A DNA stretch of 64,000 nt from Paraspadella gotoi (lineage: Eukaryota > Animalia > Chaetognatha): positions 2,463,268-2,527,267 of the forward strand of contig CM119265.1 of assembly GCA_051294375.1 (NCBI GenBank), given 5' to 3'. Positions 1,406-64,000 of this stretch are shown here, one piece after another. The position numbers and the translations under genes are program-made. Each line of letters opens with the position of its first letter. Within the stretch, counting starts at the first letter, position 1. The notes under the pieces were generated by a model, which saw nothing but the letters and a program-made list of their open reading frames with translations, was not told where the DNA came from and did not search any database.

Positions 1406-1450
1406 AGAGAGATAGATGATGTGCAGAGCCAAATAAAATGCGGCTAGCGT

Positions 1451-1554
<104 letters not shown>

Positions 1555-5083: not shown

Positions 5084-5156
<73 letters not shown>

Positions 5157-9650: not shown

Positions 9651-9689
9651 ATTAACAGTTTATTTTTAACGTTGATTGGTGGAAGCTTC

Positions 9690-15966: not shown

Positions 15967-16006
<40 letters not shown>

Positions 16007-19679: not shown

Positions 19680-19885
19680 AATTTTTGAACCCGCCTTAAT
19701 AAGCAGTCCCTTGAGCATTCGGAACAGGCTGTAAACCGTGTTAAAGGCGGGGTTTAAGCGCCCCGTCCCTCTTAACTGCTAGGCGGCCACCGGGCTAGAA
19801 CCCCGGACCTTTGGGTTTGGGAGGCGAATGTCTTGCCTCCGGCAACAATGGCCGCTGATGAACGGTTGGAGGATTTTCGTCCATC
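19680..19885 (-). mobile_element. Family A SINE-like element with twister (ribozyme 19702-19780)
   Basis: Cleanest tRNA-like head: GCGGCCA TTGTTGCCGGAGGCAAGACATTCGCCTCCCAAACCCAAAGGTCCGGGGTTCTAGCCCGG TGGCCGC (7-bp acceptor stem, B-box-like T arm), followed directly by the twister. Positional duplicate of 9425-9650. Confidence 0.7.
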
Positions 19886-21051: not shown

Positions 21052-21127
21052 AGCAGTTAAGAGGGACGGGGCGCTTAACCCGCCTGTAACACGGTGTTAC
21101 AGCCTGATCCGAAGCCCAGGGACTCTT
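21052..21127 (+). ncRNA. Twister ribozyme, type P5 (family A), in a 5'-truncated element
   Basis: AGCAGTT-AA-GAGG-GA-CGG-GGCGCT-T^AA-CCC-GC-CTGTAACACGGTGTTACAG-CCTGA-TCCGAAGC-CCAGG-GACT; predicted cleavage 21076/21077. Confidence 0.8.
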
Positions 21128-21801
21128 TATGTCGAACGGTTCTGTCACTAACACATAACAATAATTATTGTCTCTTCATAATGTTGATTTAAATAAAATT
21201 TTATCAATTTGTAGTAATATTGTAATTTTGATAGCAACAATAAAAGCATTAAAATCGAACTTTTTTACAAAATTCTTTTTTTACCTGAAAGTAGACTTCG
21301 TGACTAAAGTTTTTAACTCCAGCCCTTATTAAATTTAATTTCATGGTAGATTTCTAATTTAACTAACTTTCCCTCCCAAAAATTCCAATTTTAATATAAA
21401 AAAATAAAAATAAAAATTTCAATTAAATTCTCTTATTTTTAAACCCCCTTTCCCCTAAAAAAAAATCTTCATCAAAAATCTTTCCATTTGTTAACCCACC
21501 TTTTAATTTATATTAAAAATAAAGATTTCAAAAGGAGGAAAAAGTCAGTCCAGAAGTGAGTACTACTGAGTTTGTTTGTTTGTTTAATATGAAAACTGCA
21601 GTCAAAAGCCGTATAAAGAATTTGTCAAGCGGTTGAGACACTGCGCTCTCGGAATCTTGTATTTCCAAATCGATTGTATAACCGGATCAAATCGTTATTG
21701 TCTCAAGATTTTCGGTATTCAGATTTGAACGAAAAACATTATTGAAAAAAATGTGGAATTGTTTTTTTAAGGAAAATCGACTTTAAAAAAAAAAAAGCAA
21801 A

Positions 21802-27598: not shown

Positions 27599-29934
27599 AT
27601 GTACGAAGTCGGAATTTTCGCGCGAAGAAAGTTGGTTCGTGAAAGGATTTGTCTTCCAGGTGAGCGAGCGTCTGAGTGATTAATGAATGAATGAATGAAT
27701 GAATGAATGAATGAATGAATGAATGAATGTAATGAATGAAAGAATGAATAAATAAAGCGAACGAAATAAGTATTATTTTTTATCGAGACCAGACTAGGCT
27801 ACATCATGCTTACCGATAATTTTCACAGGCATCTCTCACTCTCCACTGGAGCTCCGTCACGATTTAGCTGTCGACGAATGGTGAGTCTCAACGAATGACT
27901 CACTGTGATTCACTACGAGACCTAATTTTTTCCCACCTCGATATTCACCAAACCTCCCGTCAGGTGGAGTTCCCCCTTTATCGATCAAATCAACTTTTAT
28001 GCCGACAAAGTCGGGGAGACTCGAGTCTTATCGGTCTGCGTCGGTTCGCAGCCAAACGTTCCGCGAGAGAAATCTTTTACTTTTCAAAGTTCCCAAAGAA
28101 TTGGGATCAAAGGTTTGGGCAGATTTGGAGGGTAAGTCAGTGATCCCCCCTCTCCTTCCTTCCTACCCCCGTTCTGGCTCGATAGCAAGGCCCTGTGATA
28201 TTTTCCATCGTCCACCTAATAAGCTCTTATAGTGTAGTCGTTCTGGTTCAATAGCAAGTCCCTGTGATATTTTCCATCGTCCACCCTAATAAGCTCTTAT
28301 AGTGTAGTCGTTCTGGCTCGATAGCAAGTCCCTGTGATATTTTCCATCATCCACCCTAATAAGCTCTTATAGTGTAGTTTTCTGGCTCGATAGCAAGGCC
28401 CTGTGATATTTTCCATCATCCACCCTACTAAGCTCTTATAGTGTAGTCGTTCTGGCTTGATAGCAAGGCCCTGTGATTTTTCCATTGTCCACCCTAATAA
28501 GCTCTTATAGTGTAGTTGTTCTGGCTTGATAGCAAGGCCCTGTGATATCTTCTGTCATCCATCCTACTAAGCTCTTAGTGTAGTTGTTCTGGCTCGATAG
28601 CAAGGCCCTGTGATATTTTCCATCATCCACCCTACTAAGCTCTTATAGTGTAGTCATTCTGGCTCGATAGCAAGGCCCTGTAATATTTTCCAATCATCCA
28701 CCCTAATAAGCTCTTATAGTATAGTCGTTCTGGCTTGATAGCAAGGCCCGGTGATATCTTCTGTCATCCACCCTACTAAGCTCTTATAGTGTAGTCGTTT
28801 CTGGCTCGATAGCAAGGCCCTGTGATATTTTCCATCATCACCCTACTAAGCTCTTATAGTGTAGTCATCTGGCTCAATAGCAAGGCCCTGTAATATTTTC
28901 CATCATCCACCCTACTAAGCTCTTCTAGTGTAGTCGTTCTGCGCTCGATAGCAAGGCCCGGTTATATCTTCTGTCATCCACACCTACTAAGCTCTTCTAG
29001 TGTAGTCGTTTTGGCTAGATAGAAAATCCCTGTGATATTTTTCCGTCATCCACCCTACTAAGTACTCATAGTGCCCCCTTCCTCCTACCTTCCAGGACAT
29101 CTCCCGAGATCAACGAGAAGACCTTCCACGAGGATGTCCCTACGGACTCGTCCGAACTGATCTTCCTTCAACCATCAAGTTGCTGCGCGAAATCTACAGT
29201 CCGATGATTTTCGCGATGCCTGCGGGGAGGATTGATAAGAAGTGTTGGCAGGTTGGATAGATTGGATAGGTGGGATGGATCGATGGATGGATAGATAAAT
29301 GGATGGATGGATGGATGGAAGGAAGGATAGATGAATGGACGGATGGACGGATGGATGAAGGAGATGGGGGTGAGAGATGGATAGACGGATTGGATGGAAG
29401 GATGGATAAATAAATGGATGGATGGATATGATAAGATGAATAGATGGATAGAGGGATAATTATATGTAAAATTAAAAAAATATTGATAATAATAAAGAAA
29501 TTAATATAATAAACGGTACGAGTAGATAAATCAATACGTTCTCCCTCCCTCTACTTTCCATTCATCACTTACCCACTGCAACTTACCCATCGTCTCCATC
29601 CGACCAGGCGAGCATCAAAGAAGACTTTCTGGCGGAACTGAACAAGTTCCTCCTCAGCATGACGCAGACTCAATCCAAGTTGGACGGGAAGACGGTTCTC
29701 TTCGTCCCTCAAGACGCTTTGCTTATGTCGCCTGAGGAAGGTGTTGAGTCAATTGAGGGCTAGTGGGGTTGGTGAATGATAGATTGATTCATTGATTGGT
29801 TGATGAGGTTAAGTTGTTAAATTGATTGGCCGTTTGCGTTTTGGATTTTGTAATTTTTTGTTCTTTTTTTATTTTTTAATTTATTTATTTATTAACGTAT
29901 TTATTTATATATTTATTTATTTATTTGTATATTT

Positions 29935-30013: not shown

Positions 30014-32360
30014 TATATTTATTTATTTATTTATTTATATCTCACCTTCCAAGCCCTGGCCAACAAATCAATGATCATGCGTCTGGAGACATCAGTCCTC
30101 AGGTGGACGGGTCAGATCAAGGAGGTCCTCAGCTCCTCCAAGTCTTTCGAAGCCTCGGATCAAGAGGGTCCGCTGGAGGAGTTGGACTTCTGGAGGAAGC
30201 GGGTCGAGGATTTGAAAGGAATCAACGAACAGTTGGGGGCGGAGACCAATGTGGCAAAAGCTATCAGTTAGCATACGATAATAATCGATCATTGGATGTG
30301 ATGATAATCCATCATCACGTCAATGAATTCAATGATTTCCGATGAAGTGGTGACCAAGAAAATATTTTTTTTTGCCATTCCGTCATTAAAATATATTCTT
30401 GTGCTATATCGTCCATTAAAATATTTTCTTTTCCATCCATCATTAAAAGGATTTTCTTTTTCCTTCCATCATTAAATTTTATTTTACCATCCCGTCACTT
30501 AAGCCATTTTATTAAACCAGCCCCGTTTAAGAAAAAAAAAGATAAAATTAAAAGGGAAGCAGTGCAGACAGTCGAGGTGTTATACGCCTCGCAGTACGGC
30601 CGATATGCATTGTGCTACGAGAGTCCGATTGCGCTCAGGGTCGACCGCCAAGCCATAAAGTCGACGCGGACGCTTTGAGAGAAGCACTCTCGACTCCGGT
30701 ACAAGGGGGGCGAGCTCGAGGCGGAACAATCCTCGTTCTAAGAGCATGAAGCGACTTAGATGGAAAACCCGACTCGCAACAGACCCTCCGCCTGCTTCCA
30801 GGCGCGTTAAACTCGACTCTCCACAAGGCGCGTCAACCACCCTCCGCCGTGAAAAGGGGATCTTTCTCTTCAGACATAAATTTATTTGGTCGGCGACCCG
30901 CCGATCTTGTAGAAACAGTTTTTTATGGTAAATCTGTCGATTTCCTCAATCATTCATTGAGTATTATTTCTAATTTTTTTTTTTTTAATAAGGAATCCAA
31001 ATCCTGTTTACTAAATTTACATTTTTTTTTTAAACTCAAACAAAAGAATACATTGTATAATACAAGTTGAGAAACAGTGTGTCGGGATCTGGCCAACGTA
31101 TAATTAAACGGGTAATCAGCGCTTAAAATCAGATTGCATTAAATCACGATAATTCTTTCACATTTGTTGATCCATTACTGATCATAACCCGATTGTTCCA
31201 GTACCAAAACTCAGTGGCTTAGCGCGCAATACACTGTAAATCAACTGCAATGGATTACTAAACTGAATGTTACTATGGTTATAATATTTTATTTCACAGT
31301 TTAAGGATATTTTTTTCAATTTTCAACTCGCACATCATTCAGTATTTTTGAACTCATTGTTTTTCAACCTTGCCCATAACTTTTTTTATTTTTAAATCAT
31401 TTTTTTAACTATTGAGGTGACTACTAAATCACACACCTTCCTAACCCACACACTTAATTATCCACTCTAATTATGATTAATTTCGAGTAGTAATTATGGG
31501 TTGAATTAGTAAAAATATTTAACTAAATGTGACTCTATGTTTTTTTTTTCATTTAAACTCATTTTAACTTGCACGATTCCATCGAAACTTTTATTCCAGC
31601 TCAATCACACACTTTCAACCACACACAAACATTTTATTTCTAATCCAACCATCCAATCACGAGTAATTAGATGGGGGACGGAGCAGACAGAGGACGGACG
31701 GCGCGGGAAACGGGGCGGACGGGACGACATGAATTTTTTTTGCATAATTTATATAATTCGATGTTTGACATTGATTTAAGTGAGTGCCCGACAAGATTTA
31801 GGGTTGGGACCGACGCAACGACGCATTATAAAGGGTCGGGATGTGCTAATAATAATAAAAATAATAATTTTTTTTTATTAATACATGAAAATTCTAATTG
31901 TATGAAATAATGTGTATAAAAAAAGATTTCAAACGATAGCGCTGTGAAAATTGAATAATGAAATATTTAGTCAAAGTTGAAATATCTTCGAGTAGAGATA
32001 TTAAACAAATATATATATATATATATATAATATCATATAAATGAATCGAGTAGAGATATATAAAAAAGTTTTCCAAATCTCTGACCAAATATGCAGTACT
32101 CTTCCGCGCATCCCATCCAACGTGCTCATGATTTGCGGCGGTAGTTTCGTCCGGTTGCATCAGCTCTGTCAGGATGCTCCTCCTTCTCCTCCTTCGGACG
32201 GAGGGTCTCGGCGACGCAGTCCAGGTGGAGCTTGCGAACGTAGTGGGATGGAGGAGTTTATTTGATTGATTGATTGATGATTGATGATAATGGAACATTT
32301 ATTCATTTTATAGATTCAGCGTTTGTGCGAGAGAATTATTCAGAAAATTCCCACATGCTC

Positions 32361-32423
<63 letters not shown>

Positions 32424-33554
32424 ACTTGTAAGCGTTCCTCCTTCTCTGCAGGCCACGACGCACTGCGTCAACAGCACTTGGGCTGTGAGTTAAAAACTCC
32501 CTGTGAAGACCGTTCCAAGTCGATAGGCGGAGATTGCAGCGTTGTGATCCCGTTGCCCACTTTTGCGGAACAGAGCTGCGGCGATGGGAAGAAAAATGAT
32601 AAATAAAATCGAACGAAGCAAACTTAATCGAAGCGCTAACAAAACCCTAACCTAATCTCTATCCCGAACCCTTATAACCTAAAAATTAATTTATTTTCAA
32701 TTAAGCTTAAACGGGGGGCGCTCACGAAAAACATGGGCCAGTTTCGGGGCCTCACAAAATCTAACGCTACATCGCAGGTAAGGTACCTCTTTTCTATTTC
32801 CTTACCCGAAATAAACTCTGGCGTGCTCAGGTAAGGAGAATTGAATCCAAATGAAGCGAATCGTGTTGATGATCTTCAGATAGAGAGGAGGTAAGTCTTT
32901 GGCGTGAGTTTCTTGCAGCTGCGCGCATTGTTCTATGGAAAGTTTAAGGAGCTCGATAATAATTTTATTTACGCTTAGAGTCAATTCTGTCTTCTCAGCC
33001 CTGACCCCTAACCACAACCACAACCAGATTGACCACAACCACGACCACCAACCAACCACAAACGACAGACCAACCAACCCGCCAAGGTCGTCAAAAACTT
33101 GAAGTTGCTGTCCGCGCTTTCGGGCGTAAACTTCTTTTGATCTGTTGCGCCAGAGAAAGAAATGGACCCCAAAGTAGAAGACTTGGCCATTTGGAGCAGA
33201 CGAATTGCTCTGGAAAGTAAATTTGATTCGAGATTTTGATATTAAACTAACAAACGATGGAACGGTAATTCCTAAGTGTTAGGCCGCACTAACAAATAAC
33301 AACATTAACAGTTTAAGGGGGATCGATCAAAACTACTATGAAGTATCAGTATGCCAGTATCAAACGATCAAAAGAGTGCCATGTACAACAGCGCCTCTCT
33401 GCCAATATTTAATCAAAGAATCAGCAGAAAGACCGACCGAAAGTGTCATTTGCTGTTTTCTCGCCTGTGTTATACCTTCTTTCTATCTTTCTCTCTTACC
33501 TTTTTTTCTTTCTTTCTTTTCTCTTTTCTTTCATTCTTTCGTCTCTCTCTCTCA

Positions 33555-33674: not shown

Positions 33675-36600
33675 GAAAGAATGAAAGAAAAGAGAAAAGA
33701 AAGAAAGAAAAAAAGGTAAGAGAGAAAGATAGAAAGAAGGTATAACACAGCGGAGAAACACAGCAAATGACATTTCGGTCGGTCTTTCTGTGATTCTTTG
33801 ATTAATATTTGGCAGAGAGGCGCTGTTGTTACATGGGACTCCTTTTTTGCCAGTTTGATACTGGCATACTGATACTCATCAGTAGTTTTGATGATCACCC
33901 TTAAAACTTGTTAATGTTGTTATTTGTTAGTGCGGCCTAACACTTAAGCTATCAGTTAGCATACGATTAATAATCGATCATTGGAGCTGATGATAAATCC
34001 ATGCATCAGTCAATGATTCAATTGATTTCCGATGAATGGTGACCAAGAAAAAATATTTCTTTTTTGCCATTTCCGTCATTAAAATATATCTCTTTCTAAT
34101 CGTCATTAAAATATTTTCTTTTCCATCCATCATTAAAGGATTTTCTTTGTCTCCTTCCATCATTAAATTTTATTTTACCTATCCCGTCACTTAAGCCATT
34201 TTATTAAACCAGCCCCGTTTAAAAAAAAACATCAGATAAAAATTAAAAGGGAACGCAGGTGCAGACATCGGGTGTTATCGCCTCGAGCAGTACAGCCGAG
34301 ATTCGCATTCGCTGCTCAGAGAGTCCTGATTGCGCACAGGTCGACCGCCAACGCGTAAAGTCGACGCGGACACTTTGAGAGAAGCACTTCGGACTGCCGG
34401 TACAAGGGGGCGAGCTCGAGGCGGACAATCCTCGTCTAAGAGCATAAGCGACTTAGATGGAAACCCGACTCGCAACGACCCTCCGCCTGCTTCCAGGCGC
34501 GGTTAACTCGCTTCACAAAGGCGCGTCACCACCTCCGCCGCTGAAAAGTGGGATCTTTCTCTTCAGACATAAATCTTATTTGGTCGGCGACCCGCCATCA
34601 TTGATAGAAACAGTTTTTTATCGGAAATCTGTCGATTTCCCAATCAATCTTGAGTATTTTTCTAATTTTTTTTTTTTTAATAAGGAATCCAAATCCTTTT
34701 ACTAAATTTACATTTTTTTTTTTAAACTCCAAACAACAAAATACATTGTATTAAAGACAAGCTTGAGAAACAGGTGTCGGATCTGCCAACGATAATTAAG
34801 CGGGTAATCATGCTTAAATCAGATTGCATAAATCACGATTAATTCTTTCAATTTGTTGATCCTTACCTATCATAACCCGATTGTTCCATACCAAAACTAG
34901 TGGCTATTAGCTGCGCCAATTACATGTAAATCAACTTGCAATGGGATTAAAACTGAACTGTTACTATGCGTTATAATTATTTTAATTTCACTTTTTTTAA
35001 ACTGATATTTTTAAATTCAATTCAACTCAATCATTTTCAATTCGCAGTATTTTTGAACTCATTTTTTTCAACTTGCCATAACTTTTGTTATTTTGAAAAT
35101 ACATTTTTTAACTATTGAGGTACTCATCTAAATCACACACCTTCCTACCCACACACTTAAGTTTATCCACTCTAATTATGATTAATTCGCAGTTAATTAT
35201 GCGTGTTTGAAATTCAGTAAAAATATTTAACATAAATGTGACTCGATTGTTTTTTTTTCATTTAAACTCATTTTAACTTGCACGATTCCATTCGAAACTT
35301 TTATCCAGCTCAATCACACACTTTCAACACACACACAAACATTTTTTGTCTAATCCAACCATCCAATCACGAAGTACATTAGATGGGGAGGAGAACAGAG
35401 GGCACGACGGCGCGGACGGGGCGGGGACGCGGACGACATAATTTTTTGCATAATTTATATAAATTCGCATTGTTTGACATTGATTTAAGGTGAGTGGCCC
35501 GACAAGATTTAGGGTTGGGACCGACGTCAACGACGCATTATAAAGGGTCGGGGATGTGCTAAATAATAAATAAAAATAGATAAATTTTTTTATATTAATA
35601 CATGAAAATTCTAATTGCTATGAAATAATTGTGATAAAAAAGAGATTTTCAAACGATAGCGCTGTGAAAAATTGCAATAATGAAAAAATATTTAGTCAAA
35701 GTTGAAATATCTTCGAGTAGAGATTATTAAACAAATATAATATAATATATATATAATAATATCATCATGAAATCGAGTAGAGATATAAAAAAGTTTCAAA
35801 TCTGGCTGACCAAATATGCAGTTACTTCTTCCGCACATCCCCATCCAACGTCTCTGATTTTGCGGCCGGTAGTTCTCGTCCGTTGCATCAGTCGTGTCGA
35901 GGATGTTCTCCCCTATCTCCTCCGTTCGGACGGAGGCGTCTCGGCGCACGCAGTCCAGGCTGGACTTGCGCAACAGCTAGTGGCATGGAGGAGTTTATTT
36001 GATTGATTGATTGATGATTGATCGATAGATCGGAACATTTTATTCATTTATTAGGATTCAGCGTTGACTGCGAAGAGAATTATCCTCAGAAAATTCTCCA
36101 CATGCTCCTCTCTCTCTCTCATCATGCTTCTCTCTCTCTCTAACTCTCTCTCTGCTCTCTCTCTCTCTCTTTCTCACTTGATAAGCGTTCTCATCCTTCT
36201 CTGTGCAGGCCCACGTACGCACTCTGGCGTCAACAGCAACTTGGTGTTGAGCTGTGAAAAATCCTTGTGAAGACCTCGTTCCAAGTCGATGAGGCGGAGA
36301 TTTCAGCGCGTTGATTGAATCCCGTTGCCCACTTTGCGGAACAGAGCTGCGGCTGATGGAAGAAATTGATAAATAAAAATCGAACGAAGCCAAACTTAAT
36401 CGAAGCGCATAAACAAAAAACCCCTCAACCTAATCTCTATCCCGAAACCCTTACATAACCTAAAAATTTAATTTATTTTTCAATTTAGCTTTAAACCGGT
36501 GGAGCGCTCACGAAAAACATGGCCAGTTTCGGGGCCTCACAAATCTAACGCTACATCGGCAGGTAAAGGTAGCTCTTTTCTCTTCCTTACCCGAAATAAC

Positions 36601-38288
36601 ACTCTGGCGTGCTGTAAGGAGAATTGAATCCAAATTGAGCGAATCGTGTTGATGATTCTTCAAGATTAGAGAGGAGGTAGTCTTCTGGCGTGCAGTTTCT
36701 TGCAGCTGCCGCGCATTGTATCTATGCGAATTTTAGTAAGGAGCTCGAGTTAATATTTTATTTACTTGAGAGTCAATTCCTGTCTTCTCGCCCTGACCCC
36801 TAACCACAACACAAACCAGATTGACCACAACCACACCACCAACCAACCCCAACGACAGACAACCAACCCGCCAAGGTTGTCAAAACTTGAAGTTGCTTGT
36901 CACGGCTTTCGGGCGTAAGACTTCTTTTGATCTGTTGCGCAGAGAAAGAAATGGACCAATAAGTAGAAGACTTGGCCTTTGGACGCAGACGAATTGCTCT
37001 GGGAAGTAAACTTTGATTCGAGCATTTGATTATTAAACTAACAAACGATGAACGGGTAATTCCTATNNNNNNNNNNNNNNNNNNNNNNNNNAAAGATTAA
37101 AAGGGTTGAAAATAACAAAGGAAAAAAAGGGGAAAATGTAGAACAGAGAGAAGGGAAAAATATAGTGAGAAAGGAAGAGGAGAATAAGGAAAAAAAAATT
37201 TTTCTTAAAAAATCAAAGTTTTCATAACAAAAATCATACTTGAAAATTAACCGAATTTAACCGTTAAAATAAATATATTAACGGTTAAGTTAAAATTATT
37301 TTTAACCGTTAATAACCGTTAACTGTTAACGGTTATCGGAACTCTATTTGATACTGGCATACTGATACTCATCAATAGTTTTGATGATCACCCTTAAAGC
37401 TTGTTAATGTTGTTATTTGTTAGTGCGGCCTAACACTTAGGAATTACCGTTCCTCGTTTGTTGGTTTTAATATCAAATCTCGAATCAAATTTACTTTCCA
37501 GAGCAATTCGTCTGCTCCAAATGGCCAAGTCTTCTTACTTGGGTCCATTTCTTTCACTGGCCCAACAGATCAAAGAAGTTTACGCCGAAGCCGACAGCAA
37601 CTTTAAGTTTTTGACGACCTTGGCGGGTTGGTCGATCTGTCGGTCGTTTTTATTGTTGTGGTTGGTTGGTGGTCGTGGTTGTGGTCAATCTGGTTGTGGT
37701 TGTGGTTTAGGTTAGGGGTCAGGCTGAGAAGACAGAATTGACTCTAAGGTAAATAAAAATTATTATCGAGCTCCTTACTCTTCATAGAACAATGCGCGCA
37801 GCTGCAAGAAACTCACCCAAAGGACTTACCTCCTCTCTATCTGAAGATCATCAACACGATTCGCTTCATTTGGATTCATTCTCCTTACCTCAGCACGCCA
37901 GAGTTTATTTCGGGTAAGGAAAAGAAAAGAGTACCTTACCTGCGATGTAGCGTTAGATTTTGTGAGGCCCCGAAACTGGCCATGTTTTTCGTGAGCGCCC
38001 CGTTTAAGCTTAAATTGAAAAATAAATTAATTTTTAGGTTTAAGGGTTCGGGATAGAGATTAGGTTAGGGTTTTGTTAGCGCTTCGATTAAGTTTGCTTC
38101 GTTCGATTTTATTTATCATTTCTTCCCATCGCCGCAGCTCTGTTCCGCAAAGTGGGCAACGGGATCATCAACGCATGCATCTCCGCCATCGACTTGGAAC
38201 GGGTCTTCAAGGATTTTATCACACTCCAAGTTGCCTGTTGACGCAGTGCGTCGTGGGCCTGCAGAGAATGGAGGAACGCTTAACAAGT

Positions 38289-41300: not shown

Positions 41301-44300
41301 ACCCACGCAACTTAAAGAAAAATGATTTGAATTGCTGCCCAAGCACTCGTACCGCAAGCTAAAAGGTTACTGATAACTTTACTCATAACTAACATCTAAT
41401 AACTTTTTAGACAGGTTTGAGACAGTTTTTAATGTCTTTTAAAGACCAAAAGAACCTATTAAATGAGTTGTGAAATTTTATATTTAAGCATAAAGAGCTC
41501 AAAAATGCTAAAAAGTATGAAGAATATAATTATAATTTTAATCATTTTTTATTTTCATTTATTATTTAAAGTTTAATATTATGTAATTTTGATTTTATTT
41601 TCAGTGAGTACTGCTAAATATTATTTTTTAATATTTATTCTTCACAAATTTAGGAATAACTTTTAGTAAGTATTTTATCAAAACTATAATTCATTTAATA
41701 TTTTATATATATAAATATTATATTATTATATAAATTTATTAAAATCAAGGTTTAATTAAAATATAAAGTCTACATCAAAAATATATTTCAAAATCAAATC
41801 AAGTATTGATTTTAATCATTATTTATTTTAAAAAATAATATCCTTTAAAATAATTTCACATATAAGATTACGATCCAAGAGAAAACCGCAAAAGTACTCG
41901 ATCACTTGGAAACTGGGAGAGTTCCTTTCCGGTCAAGTTTTTTCAGGTTTATCAGTCCCAATGTCTTCTAGCAAGACAAAAAGGAACCTAATAAAATGAG
42001 TCGTGAACCCTTCATCTGGTGTAATTGAAAATTTGGGTAACTCTAATATATTTTATTATATATATATATTATTATATATTTTGTTTAATATCTCTTACTC
42101 GAAGATATTTCATCTTTGACTAAATATTTTCATTATTCAATTTTCCAGCCTATCGTTTGAAATTCTTTTTTTATACAATATTTCTTACAATTAGAATTTT
42201 CATGTATTATAAAAAAATTTATTATTTTATTTATTATTAGCACATCCCGACTTTATAATGCGTCGTTGCGTCGGTCCCAACCCTAAATCTTGTCGGGCAC
42301 TCACTTAAATCATGTCAGAACATCGAACTATGATAAAATTATGCAAAAAAATTATGTCCGTCCGTCCGCCGCGTCCTCTGTCTGTCCGTCCCCATCTAAT
42401 TACTCGTGATTGGATGGTTGGATTAGAATAAAATGTTGTGTGTGGTTAGAAAAGTGTGTGATTGAGCTGGATATAAAGTTTCGATGGAATCGTGCAAGTT
42501 AAAATGAGTTTAAATGAAAAAAAAAACATGAGTCACATTTAGTTAAATATTTTTACTAATTCAACCCTAAATACTCGAATTAATCATAATTAGATGTATA
42601 GATTAAGTGTGTGGGTAGGAAAGGTGTGTGATTTAGTTAGTCACCTCAATAGTTAAAAAAATGATTTAAAATAAAAAAAGTTATGCAAGTTGAAAAAAAT
42701 GAGTTCAAAAAATGATGCGAGTTGAAAAAATACTAGTGAAATAAATTATTAGTACCATAGTAACAGTTCAGTTTAATCCCTTGCAAGTGATTTACATGTA
42801 TTGGCGCAGCCACTAGTTTGGTATGGTACAATCGGTTATGATCAGTAAGGATCACAAATTGAAAGAATTATCGTGATTTATCATCTGATTGGCTGATTAC
42901 CGCTTAATTATCGCTGGCAGATCCGACACTGTTTGCTCAAACTTGTTTAATGTATTTTTGTTTGAGTTTAAAAAAAAAAATTGTAAATTTAGTACAGGAT
43001 TTGGATCCTTTATTAAAAAAAAAAAATTAGAAAATACTCAGAATGATTGAGAAATCGACAGATTTACCATAAAAACTGTTTCTACAATGATGCGGTCGCC
43101 GACCAATAAATTTATGTCGAAGAGAAGATCCCACTTTTCACGGCGGAGGTGTGACGCGCCTTTGTAAGCGAGTTAACGCGCCTGGAAGCAGCGGAGGGTC
43201 TCTTGCGAGTCGGGTTTCCATCTAGTCGCTTATGCTCTTAGACGAGGATGTCCGCTCGACTCGCCCCCTTTACCGGAAGTCGAGTGCTTCTCAAAGTCCG
43301 CGGTCGACTTTATCGGTTGCGGTCGACCATCGCCATCGGACTCTGAGGCAGCGAATGCGATCTCGTCGTAGCTCGAGGCGATACCACCCGACTGTCTGCA
43401 CCTGCTTCCCTTTTAATTTTTATCTATTTTTTTTTTAAACGGGGCTGGTTTAAATAAAATGGCTAATGACGGATGGTAAAATAAAATTTAATGATGGATG
43501 GAAAAGAAAATATTTTAATGATGGATGGAAAAGAAAATATTTTAATGACGATTAGCAAAGAATATATTTTAATGACGGATGGCAAAAAAAAATATTTTCT
43601 TGTCACATTCATCGGAAATCATTGAATCATTGACTGATGATGGATTATCATCACATCAATGATCGATTATTATCGTATCTACTATGATAGTATCAATAAA
43701 TCGTTATCATTGCATCGATAAATCTTAAGGTAACATCGCTTTAATAAATTGGTGTGGTGGTATATTCACACCGCCTCAAGTCCACAATCGTTCTGCCAAT
43801 ACCATTGGCTCTGAGGGTGGAACACACCACCCCAAGCATTGCGTTACATCCACAGTCCTAAAAACTTCCATCTGTGTTGGCTAGGCGAGGCCGTCCAAGG
43901 GTAACCGCGCCAGTGAAAGGAGGCGTCACTGAGGGTCCGAAGCCCCCAAAGCCAACAGTGAGATGCCCCATCCCAATTGGCATCACAGGCAACCCGGCTG
44001 TTGCCATAAGGGGATCAACAATCTTGAAGTGAAGTTTGGGCATTTATTTATTTTAAAAATAATTTTGCCATCAAGATCACTATACTAAGAATTTTTGATT
44101 TTATGTTAGGATCTGTTGTAATATGTCATGATCACAAATTAAAAGACTCATCATGACTAATCATCTAGTTAGCTGCTTACCGCTAAATTATCGTAAGCAG
44201 ATCCGACATTGTTTGCTCAAACTTGTTTTCTATTTTATTTGTCCACAGATTCCGACTCTATAATTCACTTTTTCGGTGCGTCGGTCCGCCCCCTCAATCT

Positions 44301-45487
44301 GGTCGGGCATTCACATATATCATGTCAGAACATCGAATTATGATGAATTATGCAAAAAAACACGATGTCCGTCCGTCTATCTGTCCGTCTGTCTGTCAAT
44401 CCGTCCGTCCCACCTTAGCAAAAAACTCCAATTACTCCCGATTGGAATTAGATTTTGTGTGTGGGTAGGGAAGTGTGTGATTGAGCTGGATAATGGATAT
44501 GAAGTTTTGATGGAATCGTGCGAGTGGAAAGGAGTTTAAATGGAAAAAACAAAAAAATATATTTCACTATTTGAACGCCAATTACTCATAAGTGGATGGG
44601 ACGATTGGCTTTAAATTTTGTATGTGGGTAGGAAATTGTGTGATTAAGCTGGAAATCAAGTTTCGATAAAATCGTCTGAGTGGAAATGAGTTTAAATAGA
44701 AAAAACAAAAAACCTGTTTCACTAATTGATTATGCTTATTTTTATATTAAATGTAAATGCAATATGTATTAATTAATCAAATAACTATTAATCAATTAGT
44801 TAATTAATTAATCAATAACTAATCAGTCAAATAATCAATCAATCAATTATTTATCTATTAATTAATTATTCAATCAATCAATTTATCTATTAATTAATTA
44901 TTTAATCTATCAATCAATCAAGTCAATCGTTTTCGGCATTATTGTCGTCGTCACCATCATCGTCGTCGTTGCTTTTGTCGTGGTAAGTGACGAAAAGACC
45001 TAAAATTTATTAATTAATTACCGCTAATGATCGTGGGCAGATCCGACATTGTTTGCACAAACTTGTTTTTTTAAATTTCAGTCTTCTCTTATCTTATTTT
45101 ACTTTCAAATCTTAACTTTTTCGCGTTTTCCAAACTTTACTCTAAAATTTCTAATTTTTACATTATTCATACTATTTTTCACTTTCAACTATAATTTTCC
45201 ACTGATACTTTAATTTTCACTTTTACTTTCCCCGTTTTCACTCTTATTTCTTTCTCCTTAACTTTCTTCACTTTCTACTTTCATCTTTCCTTTCACTTTC
45301 CACTTTCCACTCTCACTTTCCACTTTCACCTCCCGTTTTTCCACAGGCCTGATCGAAGCCTTCGAGCAAAGATGCGTCGATCTTCTTGAAATCAACAAAA
45401 CTCTTCACGAATTCGCCAGATTTGAAGAAGGAGTGAAGATGGAAAGACCGATATTTCAGGGACAATATGGGAAAGAGATAGAGAGGT

Positions 45488-48594: not shown

Positions 48595-49433
48595 GAGACA
48601 GACAGATAGGACAGACAGACAGACAGACAGACAGACCGAGAGAGAGACAGACAGGCAGACATAGAGAGAGAGAGAGAGACAGACAGAGGAAGAGAGAGAG
48701 GAAGAGAGAGGTGAGAGACAGACAGATAGACCGACAGAGAGTGAGACAGACAGACTAAGAGAGAGAGAGAGAGACAGACAGACAGCAAACAGACAAACAG
48801 AGAGAGAGACAGACAGACAGAGAAAGAGAGAGACAGACAGACAGACAGAGAGAGAGAGAGAGAGAAACAGACAGACCGAGAGAGAGAGGGATAGACAGAT
48901 AGACAGCAGACAGACAGAGAGAGGAGAGAGACAGACAGACAGACCGAGAGAGAGAGACAACAGATAGACCGACATAAATAGAGAGAAAGACAGACAGACC
49001 GAGAGAGAGAGAGAGGGAGCCCCACCCTGACTTACCTCCGACCATTTAGGTGAGGGACTACAATCGAATGATCAGTTCCATTCCAAGTTCGAAGACTGGT
49101 GAGGGAGATCTCTTCAAAGAAAAGGTCAGTTCAACCCAAATGATTAAATCACAAATTTAAAAAAAAATTAAACCATAATTGAAACGCCTTAACTGACCTA
49201 TTTAGTAAAGTCTTAATTCTTAACAATTGAAGCAGTTAATAATTACCAATTCATTTATGGGGAAGCTTGGTAACCGCACACTGAACTGTTGAAAGCTTGC
49301 GGGGTCCCGCTATGTTATTATCTTATTAGAGGAATGGAGACCTGAAACCAAAGCCTGTCCAAAGTCAGGGGAAAGATAGCTTATTTATCGATATTTTTCA
49401 TGTACCAATTTCATAAGTTGTCTCTACTCTCGG

Positions 49434-51579: not shown

Positions 51580-54500
51580 CCTCTCCCACAGTTAATCGAA
51601 AAAGATCCCGAGAAGATTCGCCTCATGAGCCAAATCGACAAAGGAGTTTGCGAACTCGCGATTTGTCTTGAATCTTATCAGCAATCGACTTGGGTCAAAT
51701 ATCGAGAAGTTTGGGAATTGGACAAAGATGAATTCATCAAGTGAGATTGGAGACGATAGCGATGAATGGCGGGTGATTGGAGATATTTAACGAGAAAAAA
51801 AAGAGTGGTTAAATACGGATGATTGGAGATATAGTAATGAGAAAAAGAACGGTTAATTACGTGTGGTGAGTTTTGGGTTCAGTCCCCCTCACGGTCACGC
51901 TGGTTATGTGCGATGGTGCCGATATAAGCGCGCCAGCGACACGGGGTTGTTACTGCAGTTCCGAAGCCCCGAGCGCAGCTTGTCTGGAGATGCCTCACAC
52001 CCAGGGCGTCACACATGTCTCCCCGATGCCATAATGTATTCTTTTCTTAAAAGAAAAAAATCACTAATTCACACCCCTTCGATCTATCAATGTCCTTTTC
52101 GTCTCATCCAACCAATCACCGCTCTCTTTTTCCTCTATCCAACCAATCAGCGAATACATGGAAACTTCGCCAAACAACTCTGATTTCGAGACGGACATTT
52201 CCAAATACGATGACATCGCGAATCAGTGCGAAACCGAGGAGACGATCCGGATGGTGAGATTGTGAATGTGTGAATAAGTGGGTGACTGTGCGAGTTGGTA
52301 ATTAAGTGAATGAAATTGGTGAGTAAGTGCGGGAGTTGGTGAGTGGGTGAGTGGGTGAGTGAGGTTGTGAAAGAGTGAATGTGCGGGCGAGTGCTTCAGT
52401 GAGTGAGTGTGTGAATAAGTTTCTGAAAAAGTTGAGTTAGTGAGTGAAAGAGTTATTATGTGATTGCGTTAGTTACAGAGTGACTCACGGAAGACAACTC
52501 AACTTACTCCTTTCACTGCCCTTCTGCTCCTTTTTTCCCATTCTAATCTTCCTCCTTCCGCCTTCTAATCTTCCCCTTCTAATCTTCCCACAGGAGCGTT
52601 TCGCCCTCATCGACTGCAGCCCCATCAAAAGCTCCATCATGAGTCATTGTCTGGAGTGGCACAACCGCATCGGGTTCTTGCTCTTGGGCAACACCGTTCA
52701 GGAATTGCAGAGAGTTCACGATCTCATTCATGAGAATTCTGCCGTCACAGTCGTGGTGAGGAAGAAGGGGGAGTCACCCAATCGAGGGGGAAGGTGGTCA
52801 CCCCACCGAGGGGGAAGGGGGTCACGTAACCGAGGGGGAAGGGGGTCACCAACCCGAGGGGGAAGGGCATATCTTTTTTAAAAAATCTAAGATATTAATT
52901 TTTTTTAAATAAATATAGTTCCAAGTTTTTTCTTAAAATGGGAATAATGTAAAAATGTTTATTGTAACTGTTTTTCGGACTTAAAGGAATTGCATAATTT
53001 AGAGTGTGACATCAGAGGTCCCACCGAGATTCGAACTCGGATCGCAGGATTCAAAGTCCTGAATGCTGACCGTTACACCATGGGACCATTTGAGATATGA
53101 TCTTTTTGGCACTGTCAGCTTCAAGGTTTGAATTTCAATTGAGTCAATTTATTTTAAATATTTTTTTTTTTGGTGAGGGGGGGGGTTGCCCACCCAATGG
53201 CAAGGGGTTTCAATTAAGAATGGTTAGCCTTCTAAAAAATACATAGACAGTAAGAGTAGGTTTATTTTTTAAATATTGTTTAAATAGATACTATAAAATA
53301 ACGAACGCGCGAGGACAGTTTATGTCAGGTCAAAAATAAGAGTTTGGATGAGAGAAGGAAAAAGACAGTGACTGAAGCGAGGCATAATATTTTACAGATA
53401 CCATTCTGTGGGCCATTATGCGTTTTTTCACAAACTGAGAACCAAGCATTACCCCCGAACTTACTAGTTCCTCAGAGTTAAGGTCCCACCGAGATTCGAA
53501 CTCGGATCGCAGGATTCAAAGTCCTGAATGCTAACCGTTACACCATGGGACCACGATATCTCTATGTCTGTTTGAACGAATTTATTAGTAGTGTTAGCTT
53601 CACGTTTTAAATTTTAATTTAGTCGAGAGTGTTTAATTTATTTTATTTTTTGAATTTTAATTTATTTTTAGAATTTTTATTAATTTTTCGGTTTAAAATG
53701 AAATTTGTACAAACACAGAGTTGGCGAATAACCATGAATTATTAACCGAACCTCCTCAAACCTTCTACCCTACTTTAACAAGGATCTTTATATTCTCCAC
53801 CCCTCCCTTACCCTACCCATCCTCTTCAATTCCACCCCCAAGCCACCCGCCACTCTGGAGGAACTGGGGGTGAAGATCCTCGCCTACGAAGCCATCATAG
53901 AGGATCTGGAGACGACGGAGCTTCGCTTCCCCATCATCTCGGAGGCTTTGGCCATTCTCCACATGTTCGAGATTCCTGTGGACGAGGAGATGGCGACCTT
54001 GTGGGCGGACTTCTCCAATGAGTGGCTGTCGTACCAAACGGTAAAAAGAGGAGAAAAAGGAAAGGAAAAGGAAAGAAAGTAAAATAATGGAAATGAAAAG
54101 AAAAAAGTAAATGAAAAAAAAAGGAAAAAATAATAGAAAATCTGATTAAAACATAAGGAAAGAAAAGAATAATGAATCAAAAATAAGGATGGGGGAAAAA
54201 GAAATAAAAAGAAAAAGTTTTTGAGACTCTCTCACACTCTGCCCATCTCACTCCCTCTCCCCATCTCTCTCCCTCTCCTCCTCTCTCTTCCTCTCCCCAT
54301 CTCTCCCCCTAGATCCTCCACGGTGCTGGACAAATGCTGGAGAAAGTCAAAGAGAAATTCCGCGCCGACCTTCTGCGTCAGGCCGAGGAATGGCGTCAGA
54401 AATGCCTGGCGCTGTACGAACACTTCATGGCCACCGGACCTTTCTACTCTAACTTCACGAGCGAACAAGCATGCGAGATCATGGGCGAGACTCACAGGTG

Positions 54501-56323
54501 TGTGAGGAAGCTTGCATTTGATTGCCTACTTGTTCTATCTCCCTCTTTTACAAGACCATATATAATATATATTCTCATTATGTCATTATGTCACTATGTC
54601 TTTTTTTATTAATAATGATTAATATTGTATCAAACTCTCTAATCAATCACTATCATCAATGGCTATAATAATTAAAAGATTTAATATACAATTTATGATC
54701 TCGAAATATCACACGTACTGAGGTTATTTATACCAATACGACTATATGCAAATGAGATTGACGATTACAATCTTATTTTCCATTGAATCGAGAGTTTATC
54801 TCTGATACCATCCCGTCGGTACGTACATCCGTCGCTATGTCAGTCTGCCGCAGTGTCCGTACATTCTCTCTCTATTTGTCCATACATCCGTCCGTCCGTC
54901 AACAGGGACATCGATCGCCTTCGGGTCGTCGAAGCGGAGATTCGTCGCGGTCTTCTCATCTTCCGTATGGACCTTCCGCCATCCCACGATCTCTTGATGC
55001 TGGAGAGACATTTGGGGGAGATCGAAGGCATTTGGGAGATTGCAATGCAATGGGACAGGTTCGGCATTGAGTTAATTTTTTGTTGTTAAAGATTAAGTTG
55101 AAAGTTAGTATAAAGGTATAGGGATTAAGTGAGCGATTAAGGTCGGTGTTTAAGATTAGGGGTTATGATTAGAAATTGGGGATAAGGATTTAGGATTAGG
55201 ATTAGCATTAGGTTAGATTAGGGATAAGGGTTAAAGGAACAAAAATGAGGCGCTCTGGAAAAAGAGAGCCGGCCAAAGAGGGTTTGGATTAGGGAAATTG
55301 GACAGGTGGGTCAAAAATGGTTTGGATTAGGGAATTTGGGAGATTCCAATGCAATGACAATCCTGGTTAGAATATGACTGCGATTAACTTGGAAGAATCC
55401 AATACAATGGGACAAGGAGAGTAAACGATTAATTTGCGAGGAGCAAATCAACCAATCTATTCCTAACTTACCTTTCTCTCCCCCCCTAACTACACAACCA
55501 ACCCACCCCAGACTCTGGGACGAATGGCGACTCGGCGCCTTCGCCACTCTCCGCACGGAAGTCATGGAGGACACCTCCAACGAGCTTTTCAAGAAGTTGA
55601 CCCTCATCGACAAATCGTTGAAGAAATCCGGGTTCGAGTGGAGCATCGTCGCCTCGACCTGTCATCGCGTGGACGAGTTTAGGAGGACGATGCCTCTGGT
55701 CACGGATCTCCACAATCACGCCATGAGGGCGCGACATTGGGAACAGATCAAGGTTTCTATTAGGGGGGGGAGTGCGGCTTTAGAGGGGTGAGAGTAGATT
55801 AAGGGTTTTTGGGGGAAGGTCTGTTGGGAACTGATTATTTTATGGTCTTTGTTTTAGAGGTGGATGGTTTGGATTTGTATTTACAGGCGATGCCAAATGT
55901 TGGTCCACCGGTTCTTTTTTTTCTTTTTTTTTTTTCATAAGTCTATGGTGGACTAAAATCCACCAACCGTTCATCAGCGGCCATTGGTGCAGGAGGCAAG
56001 TCATTCGTCTCCCAACCCAAAGGTCCCAAAGGTCCCCAGCAGTTAAGAGGGATGGGGCGATTAACCCGCCTGTAACACAGTGTTACAGCCTGATCCGAAG
56101 CTCAGGGACTGCTTATATTGAACGGTTCTGTCATTAACACAACAATAATTACTGTCTTTTAAAGTCCCACGGTTAATTTTCTTTATCCGTTCGTACAATC
56201 TAGCTTTTTAATGCGTTTCAATTCATTTTGTATCTTTTTCCGACGCATCGATCGAAAAGTTTTAAAAATTCGTTACGTCATATATCGTCATATAATGTCC
56301 AATAAACTCTAATCTAAATCTCG

Positions 56324-56354: not shown

Positions 56355-57891
56355 ACCCACGCGTAAAAAGGCGATGATGGGCAAAGACTTTGACGAAACT
56401 GACGAAGGCTTCAACCTCGAGAAGATCATGGAGCTCGAGTTCGCCGCCTTCGCCGAAGGAATCCACAACACGTCGGACGCTGCGACGAAGGAGTTGGTCA
56501 TCGAAATGGGTCTCATTAAGATCAACAACATTTGGTTGAGAACCGAAGAGTCGGACGGTGAGGAGGTGAGCAGGCGGTAGGGAAGGGGAGGGAGGGGAGG
56601 GAAGGGAAGGGAAGGGAAGGGAAGGGAAGGGAAGGGAAGGGAAGGGAAAGGGAAAGGAAGGGGAGGGAAGGGAAGGGAAGGAAAGGGGGCTTGGTTGTGA
56701 AGGGAAGGGAAAGGGAAGGGGAGGGAAGGGGAAGGGAAGGGAAGGGAAAGGAAGGGAAGGGAAAGGAAGGGAATGGAAGGGAAAGGAAGGGAAGAGAAAG
56801 AAGGGAAGGGAAGAAAGGAGAGGGAAAGGGGGCTTGGTTGTGAGGGAAGGGAAAGAAAGGGAAGGGAAGGGAAGGGGAAGGGGGTGAAAGGGGATTGGTT
56901 GTGAAGGAGAGGGAAAGAAAGGGAAGGGAAAGGGAAGGGAAGGGGAGGGAAAGGGGGATTGGTTGTTGTTCGGGGGTTGGGTTAAAACGAGTCGGGTTAA
57001 ATTTTTGCCCTTTTTTTTCTTTTGCAGAAAAGGGTGACGGAAATTAGATTTTTAAATTTGGTATTTTTTGGATTAAAAAATGCGTGGTTTCTCTTTGGAA
57101 GTAAATGTATTTTTTTTTTTTTTTAATAATGTCTTCGACTCGAGTCGCGGATCCGTCCCGATTCCATCAGCGATGTTATAATGACAACCGTTTTGGTGTT
57201 TTATCTAAAATAAGCGCGTTTTACGGGTAAAGCCAATTAAATTCATCAACAAATAGTCAAACTTTGCTCCCTTCGTTCATTATTGGGCTTGGGTATGTCA
57301 AATCTCGAGAAATCAAAGGGCGCGAAAAGTAGACCCACCAAGAGTCGAACTTGGGTTTCCGGGTTCAGTACCCGGCGTGCTAACCGTTACACCATGGGTC
57401 GTATCCAGAAGGCGAGAGGAAACTTGATTAAGTATTTCTAATCTTTAAAAAAAGAGTTTGAGAGAGAGAGAGAGAGAGAGAGAGAACCGGTTTTTTAATC
57501 AGATCGAAGAAAATCGAATTTCGAGTCGCGAAAGATTAAAATTTTGTTGAGGAACCAGAAAGAGAGAGAGAATGAATGAGTGAATGAATGAATACACGGA
57601 TACGGTCATGGGCACACACTCCGCGGCCTATACGACCATTTAGTCGTTGTTCAAAGGTTAATGTAAAATTAGAAGTAGAAATTAGATTTCCACAACAGAC
57701 TCCACAGCTATAAAACTATCATAAAACGAAAATAGTTAGTTTTCATTAGAGTATGAAAAAAGAAATAATAAGTCAATACACATAATAAAATGTTCGGATT
57801 AAGAAACGGTTTCATGTCTATTACAAAAAAAACCAAAGAATTTGAGAAAACATTGAGACGTCTCGTCTTTATCTTCTTTGTAGCTTAAAGT

Positions 57892-61809: not shown

Positions 61810-62720
61810 TCAATCGACACCCAACCCTTTCTCGATCCTGTCCAGAAGAGTCTCTCCATTCATCTCTCTCTCTCCCTCTCTGCTCTTTTCTATCCTGTCC
61901 AGTAGAGAGTCTCCATTAATCTCGCTATCCACCCGTCCCCCCTTCACTATCCTCTCTAACCATCCCTCCCTCTCCTCCCTTCCTCCCTTCTTCCTCCCTC
62001 TCTTCCTCGTGGACACCAACCCGTGCACCCGTTTCTCGTGTCGATGCTTTTCGTTCGGTCGAGAGAATTCTTTCCCGCACACGCAACACGGCCATCGTTT
62101 CCCTTCGTGCGCGGCCTCGACGTGGGAGCGGAGATCGAACTTGATCGAGTAGACCTTGGGACAGAGCGGACAAGCGAAGGATTCTCCGCCGTGGATCCCG
62201 CGAATGTGTTGTTTCAGGGTGCTGGGTTGGGAGAAGATCTTTCCCGGGCACTGCGGGCATCGCAGCACTCGGCCCGAATGGCGGTTCATCCTGTGTTTCC
62301 GCAGGGCTTCCTTCTCGCGGAAGGCTTCGCCGCATTTGAGGCATTTGAAGGGTTTGGAAGGGGTGGCGCCGTCGCCCTCGGCGTGGTGGTCGCGGGCGTG
62401 GCGAAGGAGATCGTCGACGGTGGCTCCGCATTCTTCGCACATCGTCTTCGTCTTCTTCTTGATCTCCTCTTCCTCTTCTTTGCTCTTCCTCGTTACTCCG
62501 TTTCTTCCGACGGTTTTACCCTTCTTGTGCTGCCACTCTTGGTGTCGAGCGAGATTGTAGGCCGTCGAGAAGGGAAGCTGACACGTGACCACGTCGCAGA
62601 TCACGTGATCTGGAGGGAGGACGACCTCCTCGGGGTGGCGGAACTTAAGGGGTTGGGAGAAAGGAAGGGATTTGAGAGAGAAGTATGAAAATGAGAAAAA
62701 TGGGGAGTAGGAAATACTTT

Positions 62721-62757
<37 letters not shown>

Positions 62758-64000
62758 TTTTCTTCCTTCCTTCCTCCTTTCCTTCCTTCCCTTCCACTCG
62801 TCATCATCCCCCCATTTCCTCACCTCCACGTGATAAGACAAATCCGCGGGCGAGCCGAAGCGGCTCGAGCACCACCTGCAGACGCTGAGGCCTTTGCCGC
62901 CGTGTCGCGTAACGGCGTGACGGACGAAAACCGCCTCTCTCTCGAAGTGACATCTTCGCCGGAAGGGGATGGGCCGGGCGGCGCAGAGGTGACAGAGGTA
63001 GACCTATGTTTTTCACGTAAGTTATAAAACCGAGATCCAGTGGCGCTATTTTCTAAAAGCGCTCAGTTTCTAAACTTATTTTTCGAGAACGCCCCCTTTT
63101 TTTTTTAAATTCGAAATTAGGTTAATTTGTTTTTTTTTTTAGATAATGTTAGGTTAAGGTTCAGGATTAGGTTAGGGATTGGTTTAAAACCTAATGAAAA
63201 TATTTCAACAAAATATTAAGATTAAAATTAAATTAGGGGGTAAACGAATGGAAATGGGGCACCCTTGTAAAAGAGAGAGCCGAACTTCTTTTTAACTACG
63301 GCTTCCGTCGTGACTAAAATAAAACCACCAAAGCCAGTCCAAATTCAGCGAATGAATGGATAATTTTTATATTGGTTGTACCAATTTCAATAAAACTCTT
63401 CAAAAAGAGGTCCCTCACCCTGTTCCCCAAAACTAGATCATACCTTGTCCCCGTGATTCTCGTAAATGTGTCGGTTCTTCTGAAAGGTGGCCTCGAACGT
63501 CTCTCCCGCTCCCTCGACAGTCCCTTCCTCCCCCGCCTCCTTCGCCTTCTCGACCTCGGCCTCGCAAAACTCGCAGCGGATCGCCCACTTGACGTGATCG
63601 AGATCTCGGTGAAGGGCGAGGTTGTGAGAGGTGGTGAAACGGCGCGGGCAGAGCGGGCAAGGATGGAGGCGGGCGTCGGGCGGAGAGTGGCGGGAATCCT
63701 CGTGAAGGAGGAGGGTGTTGGGATGGAGGAAGTCGGCCGGACACGAAGGGCAGGCGAGGGTGAAGAGGCGGTGGAACGTCTGGAGTGGGGGGGGGGAGGA
63801 ATGAATGAACGAATGAATGATTGGTTAATGGAAATTTATTCTCAACTCCTCATCAATTTTTGTGGTCAGAAAGATGATTCAGTGGTTGTTGCCAAAACTG
63901 GTATCCTCCGGTATCCAGACTCCGCCCCCCTCGCACAAACCTTGAAGTGAGAGATGAGATACTCGAACCGGGCGTGGGCGACTTTGCATCCAACCACGTG
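61810..64000 (-). CDS. Multi-C2H2 zinc-finger protein, 5' partial
   Basis: Exons 63444-63779, 62824-63003 and 61810-62643 join in phase 0 with GT-AG, plus a probable further exon near 63900-64000. Fingers include CPSC..HEDSRH, CPLC..HRDLDH, CLKC..HRMNRH, CPQC..HIRGIH, CPLC..HVEAAH, CCVC..HEKRVH. Confidence 0.85.

Follow-up and report, generated by a model that had tools for sequence, protein, structure and literature searches.

Twister ribozymes provide a defined standard for judging new candidates. In type P5 (RF02684; PMC6765202, PMC11662667) the strand order opens at P5; the recognizable parts are the cleavage site U^AA, a GA dinucleotide, the pseudoknots T1 and T2, P4 with its loop L4, and an optional P3. 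Among about 1,950 scored twisters, imperfections of P1, P2 and P4 are reported to be tolerated and changes to the pseudoknots or catalytic residues are not; the literature pool of that study consists of type-P1 twisters, in which bulges are tolerated (PMC11662667). P1 itself is reported there as dispensable, while cleavage without P1 is reported elsewhere to be inefficient (PMC8501958).

Ribozymes also reside in mobile elements. Sm-alpha and Sj-alpha of schistosomes are high-copy, tRNA-related retroposons of Pol III type that carry an internal hammerhead ribozyme, and tandem copies have been proposed as their source (PMC6765202, PMC2770079). Animal non-LTR retrozymes are non-coding ribozyme units of 170-400 nt, with type I hammerheads in tandem units and with dispersed monomers; they have been proposed to derive from Penelope-like elements (PLEs), and their ribozymes to act as dimers in amphibians (PMC7229834; bioRxiv 10.64898/2026.07.22.740005). 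RtcB circularizes retrozyme monomers in vitro (PMC7229834). The bioRxiv report argues that hammerhead retrozymes are non-autonomous PLEs; its main text mentions neither ‘tRNA’ nor ‘twister’. Minimal PLE hammerheads with a palindromic helix III have been proposed to cut in dimeric form and to leave monomers whole (PMC4209133), and the PLE enzyme PAc is reported to start internally and to prefer uncut RNA and AT-rich targets, cleavage being dispensable in vitro (PMC11167929). Naiad PLEs are reported to be without canonical hammerheads by Craig et al. 2021 (PMC8557442), who do not use the word ‘twister’. Finally, the LINE Perere-3, of the RTE type, has a T-variant twister in P1 order at its 5′ end, with a weak P1 and a P3, and is cut at that end (PMC8501958).

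The element considered here was met in a 64,000-nucleotide stretch of the Paraspadella gotoi genome (contig CM119265.1), referred to below as the window; all positions are those of the window. A blastn comparison of the region with the window finds a repeat of about 220 bp in six copies or pieces:

55944 to about 56161, plus strand: focal copy; B box and T arm lost, twister-like fold kept
19670-19888, minus strand: copy with a complete tRNA-like head (19855-19782) and B-box-like GGTTCTAGCCC; L4 damaged, 3′ end shortened
9425-9652, minus strand: counterpart of the 19670 copy in the other duplicated block; matched by the twister descriptor, 3′ end shortened
21045-21176, plus strand: copy without leader and head; 3′ end complete
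11165 to about 11425, plus strand: decayed full-length copy; P4/L4 lost
about 19000-19065, minus strand: 3′ fragment, from P4 to the 3′ part

An earlier, sequence-only reading had described a recurring element with a leader and a tRNA-like head ahead of an intact permuted twister. All the places it listed were found; it gave no strand, and three of them (9425, 19680, 19020) belong to the minus strand. Because the pairs 9425/19680 and 11165/21050 sit in duplicated blocks, the copies amount to about four independent insertions. The 21050 copy has neither leader nor head. The core of that copy agrees with the family majority apart from one change in P4 and one in P5. Large duplicated blocks of the window (2146-10372 against 13048-20568; 30258-33274 against 33946-37065 and 42047-43678) are 79-93% identical and hold exons of an MFS transporter and a dynein, runs of N and many small indels; they may represent duplication or uncollapsed assembly.

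Abundance was judged from four public sequencing runs of this organism, whose contigs over 55800-56300 number 736 to 10,923 per run. Peak summed depth exceeds flank depth about 2-6 × 10^4 times in the three DNA runs, a ratio that is not a copy number and supports only ‘very abundant’; the fourth run, X9, which is guessed to be RNA, is used as DNA-type evidence. The family is homogeneous: on an 80-nt core, in which positions close to the ends of the stretch are poorly assessed, nine differences reach 1%, and the large ones are confined to the P3 loop. The repeat is genuine; it is also young and very abundant. Its parts, as they lie in the focal copy on the plus strand, are as follows:

55944-55976, plus: leader, with a hairpin (55946-55952/55959-55965) and a start, TGGTGGAC..TCC, like the conserved Naiad 5′ motif
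55965-55973 and 56119-56127, plus: 5′ arm (in the leader) and 3′ arm (in the 3′ part) of a 9-bp long-range stem
55977-56037, plus: tRNA-like head, with the 5′ strand of an acceptor stem, an A-box-like stretch (55985-55996) and the anticodon-loop-like CTCCCAA
56038-56113, plus: P5-order twister fold, all parts mapped
56038-56044/56107-56113, plus: P5
56047-56050, 56051-56052 and 56053-56055, plus: P2′, GA and T1′
56056-56061, 56062-56064 and 56065-56067, plus: spacer, U^AA and P2
56068-56069 and 56070-56088, plus: T2 and P3
56089-56093/56102-56106 and 56094-56101, plus: P4 and its loop L4
56114-56161, plus: 3′ part, including the second arm of the long-range stem and ending in an AC-rich segment

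Four contigs stop at 55943-55944, which sets the 5′ boundary; the 3′ end, read from loose contig ends, is fixed at CTCTTCA. Beyond it those contigs run into mixed AT-rich flanks, and neither poly(A) nor a simple-repeat tail stands at the family's 3′ end. The depth of leader and head (55970-55986) relative to the 3′ part (56106-56122) is 0.81, 0.86, 0.96 and 0.90 in runs X1, X3, X5 and X9, and leader and head thus appear to be kept in most copies. The target duplications and tandem copies suggested for a look-up turned out unevenly: the two copies with both ends have candidate duplications of different lengths (5 nt at 55944, 4 nt at 11165), and no tandem junction of the element occurs in the window, nor among the 15 of 50 joints and 24 of 521 loose ends listed. 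Neither a partial tandem nor a 30-40-bp tail is found at any of the six window copies. A leader-like stretch following the 19000 fragment, a candidate tandem remnant, does not rise above background (60 of 2722 tiles match as well), and neither does tail-like sequence upstream of four copies.

Ends of this kind could belong to an element moved by other enzymes, a non-autonomous element of Helitron2/Helentron type or the solo LTR of a small LTR element, with head and twister as mere cargo. The usual end rules of Helentrons and LTRs were applied. The terminal hairpin beside a 9-bp subterminal inverted repeat, the copying of whole elements, the CA at the 3′ end and the shortened 3′ ends at 19670 and 9425 all fit such a mover, but the inverted repeat's partner is placed about 35 nt short of the other end, the contigs place the 5′ boundary at TATGG rather than TG, which rejects TG..CA LTR ends, the window contains no LTR-internal-LTR unit, and the hairpin has a Naiad counterpart. 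This origin is quite improbable.

The tRNA likeness of the head can be followed in the copy at 19855-19782: its acceptor stem has 7 bp, its A-box-like and B-box-like motifs are spaced nearly as in canonical tRNAs, and its CTCCCAA resembles an anticodon loop; in the focal copy T arm and B box are lost at 56027-56037, and a short duplication stands in their place. A tRNA descriptor, built on the invariant positions of tRNAs and demanding 13 of the 16 together with a full 7-bp acceptor stem, matches only the 19847 copy in the window and gives six matches in 100 shuffled windows. The invariant positions alone do not discriminate (about 13 chance matches per shuffled window). The head is not called a tRNA by Rfam or ARAGORN, no tRNA match of it occurs among phage records, and positions A14 and R57 deviate in the family majority. 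The claim of a tRNA-like head is thus upheld by the descriptor in one copy and not by the standard callers; from these motifs, a tRNA origin is likely. A classical SINE would start at the tRNA 5′ end, whereas here a 33-nt leader precedes the head in most copies. The window also contains three tRNA-Gln genes on the minus strand (53015-53087, 53481-53552, 57329-57401), within a dynein gene and opposite to it; considered as a source of the head, they do not look like one.

Behind the head, the conserved elements of a twister, N^AA, GA and an L4 of the form U-NNN-AA-NN, follow one another in P5 strand order. The U^A proposed for cleavage, 56062/56063, falls within this motif and is the predicted scissile step, with G56051 as the putative catalytic residue. 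T1 is CCG/CGG (3 bp, with one G-U in the focal copy) and T2 is GC/GC (2 bp); both can pair. That T1 had covaried to CCG/CGG, and that the T1 and T2 pairs are conserved, was borne out: in the family majority neither the catalytic residues nor the two pseudoknots are disrupted, and this T1 is shared by 20 of a further set of 120 viral (phage) loci that also form P2 and P4. Those phage-contig candidates in P5 order (L129, L170, L175, L184, L206 and 15 more) represent at least four sequence types.

The helices are less regular. P4 has 5 bp; P2 pairs CCC with GAGG, which leaves one A bulged out of a 3-bp helix. Most of the family has this form: in all four runs C>T stays at or below 2.3% at every one of the three C positions. 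Where the P1 hairpin should lie there is no stable intramolecular stem: a P1 of about 2 bp, as had been supposed, would need a 2-nt loop, and the stretch is instead a spacer of 6 nt that is complementary to itself; the family has GGCGCT, the focal copy GGCGAT.

Could the likeness be chance folding in a GC-rich repeat? A P5-order descriptor, relaxed after the element had been seen, finds two matches in the window (56051 on the plus strand, 9522 on the minus), both in copies of the element. It finds one in 150 shuffled windows, and none if P5 is held to at least 6 bp; among 120 viral loci it picks out 16, and every one of the 14 that Rfam assigns to the twisters is in that set. That post hoc relaxation and the want of a significant covariance-model match speak for chance; the rarity of shuffled matches, the same bulge and spacer in Naiad loci, and a covaried second family in the window (both below) speak against it. 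The twister fold in P5 order exceeds chance, and coincidence is scarcely credible as its explanation. A metagenome scan for relatives with the element's own P3 returned none.

Covariance models give a less favorable account, and the check with them that had been proposed went against the sequence-only reading: the Rfam twister models return nothing on the element, at gathering score or at E up to 10, while RF02684 matches 13 of 15 control loci. A model built from 13 phage twisters scores the element at 12.9 bits (E 0.18) in a different register, which is not significant; one built from 18 Naiad-type twisters gives the focal copy 16.0 bits (E 0.08) in the proposed register, third of 29. Of the ‘intact’ twister, then, the P5 order, the catalytic residues and both pseudoknots stand, and an intact helix set is not supported. 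The element is not a textbook twister: it shares with type P5 the strand order and the parts listed at the outset, and differs in its 6-nt spacer in place of the P1 hairpin, its bulged 3-bp P2 and the lack of an Rfam match, being a predicted ribozyme. With no P1 and no match it falls outside strict Rfam type P5, just as leader and missing tail place it outside the classical SINEs. If the reading as a twister is right, standard covariance models miss this form of it.

By analogy with type-P1 twisters, the helix defects fall in the tolerated class. The active nested fold lies 5.6 kcal/mol above the minimum owing to a competing YGGG/CCCG hairpin; in 18 phage twisters the same gap is 1.6-7.6 kcal/mol, and only one of the 18 exceeds the element. 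Self-cleavage of the element is a prediction.

What cleavage would accomplish is a separate matter. The sequence-only reading supposed that it parts the Pol III head from the body; in its strongest form, monomers cut efficiently, the head is freed, and the 3′ piece is a mobile or functional RNA. All catalytic residues are present, defects of P1 and P2 are tolerated in type-P1 twisters (PMC11662667), and Perere-3 copies are reported to begin at the twister cut site (PMC8501958). In the present element, however, head depth is 0.81-0.96 of body depth in all four runs, no copy starts at the cut among the 24 of 218 loose ends listed, and P5 together with the 9-bp long-range stem would keep the halves joined. 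The likeness to Perere-3, a twister in a retrotransposon with a weak P1 and a P3, does not extend to strand order or to the place of the cut; here the predicted cut is internal and copies are whole. Release of the head is a poor prospect, and the supposed separation finds no support in the copies.

The element was also compared with Naiad. The last 300 nt or so of 51 of the 54 published Naiad consensus sequences (supplement of PMC8557442), read by eye, hold P5-order twisters in seven: Mley, Movir-1, Mgal, Bpla, Mphi, Scon and Mmer, with spacers made of one or two short palindromes. In Mgal, Bpla and Mphi, again by eye, P2 is 3-against-4, with the same bulge as in the element. Other Naiad 3′ regions show hammerhead-like cores by eye, and those of CGi, Sglo, Skow and Pfla a conserved GGCGGGTG..CACCTG motif.

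Motifs derived from these consensus twisters were used to scan metagenome contigs, giving 95 loci with the P5-order fold, mostly of one closely related family. T1, T2, P4 and the 3-nt YCC strand were fixed in the scan, and those columns are no evidence; the P2 partner strand and the spacer were left free. The partner is G-N-GG in 83 of the 95 loci (GCGG 66, GGGG 11, GTGG 5, GAGG 1), and the bulged base of P2 is therefore free, as in the CCC/GAGG of the element. The spacer contains GGCGCT, the hexamer of the element's family, in 60 loci and GGCGCC in 12. In 18 chosen loci P5 and P3 covary: eight pairs show double changes, and 93.6% of positions pair, against at most 44.7% when the strands are slid.

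One locus, L273, is a full Naiad, with an N-terminal GIY-YIG domain (E 1e-5) and a C-terminal reverse transcriptase (E 8e-4, below Pfam's cut-off). It has a terminal repeat, a twister 180 nt after the reading frame, and a GGTGGA motif about 27 nt past the tandem junction. The other eight scanned reading frames of motif loci yielded no reverse transcriptase. From L273 and the consensus file (PMC8557442), Naiads share with the element the bulged-P2, P5-order twister with a GGCGC-type spacer near a fixed 3′ end, the GGTGGA motif, the absence of poly(A) and the AT-rich flanks; fixed ends, no poly(A) and an AT-rich flank are also seen in the 45 Naiad-type copies, of the 95, for which the end motif was found. 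The element differs in having no reading frame, a tRNA-like head, a shorter spacer and no partial tandems seen, and its ends break 3-4 nt before the motif as against about 27 nt in L273.

The leader carries part of this likeness. TGGTGGA occurs within the first 70 nt of at least 13 of the 54 Naiad consensus sequences. Only 0.05% of window tiles align with the L245 motif as well as the leader does; against the L273 motif the leader is not significant (37% of tiles are as good). The terminal segment reaches only the 1% level against the start of the L273 unit and gives no alignment with L245. Joined end to start, the element reproduces by eye the GTCTCTTC-N4-GGTGGAC context of Naiad_Mphi. Direct blastn of the element against the 95 loci finds no likeness (best E 0.78), a viral scan for the Naiad-type motif returns none, and no Naiad or other reverse transcriptase is found among the 148 of 405 window reading frames scanned.

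A second twister-like family lies in the same window:

6205-6304, plus strand: second-family copy
17054-17136, plus strand: second-family copy
49289-49388, plus strand: second-family copy
near 63322 and 25914: fragments

It reads GA-TGG, T1 TGG/CCA, spacer AGGCCT, TAA, T2 AC/GT and P4 CCTG/CAGG, without P3, and has a GC hairpin upstream of the fold; P2′ is decayed in the window copies. The two best matches of the Naiad-based model are members of this family, T1 and T2 have covaried, and the spacer keeps the 6-nt palindromic geometry in different letters (1.1% of hexamers self-pair as well as GGCGCT). The CTCTTCA end common to both families is uninformative, the heptamer occurring 23 times in the window.

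A rival account is that of an ordinary LINE-moved tRNA-SINE which once picked up part of a Naiad repeat, its twister being a weak or dead passenger and the leader the product of a far-upstream start or read-through. A tRNA-like head, dispersed monomers with no tandem seen, possible short target duplications of differing length and a hairpin competing with the active fold are all what it would lead one to expect. It does less well with a family that lacks a poly(A) or simple-repeat tail, keeps in most copies 33 nt upstream of the tRNA 5′ end with a Naiad-like start, and has its catalytic residues and both pseudoknots intact in the majority. We regard it as unlikely.

The reading we prefer, and to which we give somewhat better than even chances, is that the element derives from a Naiad, is non-autonomous, and carries a tRNA-like head, probably of Pol III type, where a Naiad has its reading frame. 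It is likely copied by Naiad enzymes, presumably from a partner elsewhere in the genome, rather than as an ordinary SINE. By analogy, the element would work like a retrozyme or like Sm-alpha, with a Naiad-type twister replacing the hammerhead. With retrozymes it shares unit size, non-coding content and dispersed monomers; it has no hammerhead match and, in the window, no tandem. With Sm-alpha it shares high copy number, a likely tRNA relation, a probable Pol III-type organization and an internal ribozyme, here a putative one of twister type; it has a Naiad-like leader besides, and only monomers are seen. The sequence-only reading overlooked both the tie to Naiad and the precedent of Sm-alpha, a tRNA-derived Pol III retroposon with a hammerhead (PMC6765202, PMC2770079). 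Neither a tRNA-headed twister element nor a tRNA-SINE moved by a PLE is described in the literature searched, most subscription papers and Repbase lying outside it.

A cycle can be proposed for such a Naiad derivative. The head of a tandem master would drive its transcription; twisters would cut after pairing in twos through their spacers, a lone copy cutting poorly; the unit-length RNA would be ligated into a circle, a plausible role for the cut ends that the sequence-only reading had also named; and at the junction of 3′ end and leader, where the Naiad-type signal lies, a Naiad reverse transcriptase would begin and copy one round. Copying a circle once from that junction would account for the genomic order of leader, head, uncut twister and fixed 3′ end: opening a circular or tandem template at the Naiad signal should leave the leader upstream, the internal ribozyme uncut and the 3′ end without a tail. 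An uncut linear tandem RNA would be an alternative template, which the PAc result allows.

By analogy with dimer hammerheads, GGCGCU as an inter-copy P1 would be worth -8.3 kcal/mol, the focal GGCGAU -2.5; when two copies were folded together, the spacer-paired dimer did not come out. The full proposal, a tRNA-headed, ORF-less Naiad parasite whose P1 is replaced by a palindrome, whose twister cuts only as a dimer, whose circles come from tandem transcripts while monomers stay whole, and whose circle is copied by a Naiad enzyme from a fixed signal, is put forward tentatively and may well fail in one part or another. If true, it would add a natural dimer-gated twister and a tRNA-SINE-like family mobilized by a PLE, neither of which was found described.

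Several implications follow if this Naiad reading is right. Penelope-like enzymes, and not only LINEs, can then move tRNA-headed short retroelements; Naiads gain support for a ribozyme; and twisters may be dimer-gated in the manner of PLE hammerheads. A 220-nt unit with promoter, ribozyme and priming signal would make a small test system for the role of self-cleavage in PLE transposition, and for circular RNAs as templates of retrozyme-like elements.

The focal copy lies in an intron (55753 to about 56371, plus strand) of a DNAH2-like axonemal dynein heavy chain gene, in sense orientation, and its twister would therefore be part of the pre-mRNA; dynein matches over partial stretches reach about 60-78% identity and point to an animal-like genome. 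Among other features of the window, a different dispersed repeat of 200-400 bp (39-498, 9838-9996, 19985-20208, 31540-31850, 42236-42526, 44246-44944) has a GTCC microsatellite in the copies read, a feature reminiscent of DINE-1/HINE elements. Units of about 69 bp form a tandem array at 28170-29073, and C2H2 zinc-finger reading frames at 61810-63003 and 63438-63824 lie on the minus strand, opposite to the dynein gene.
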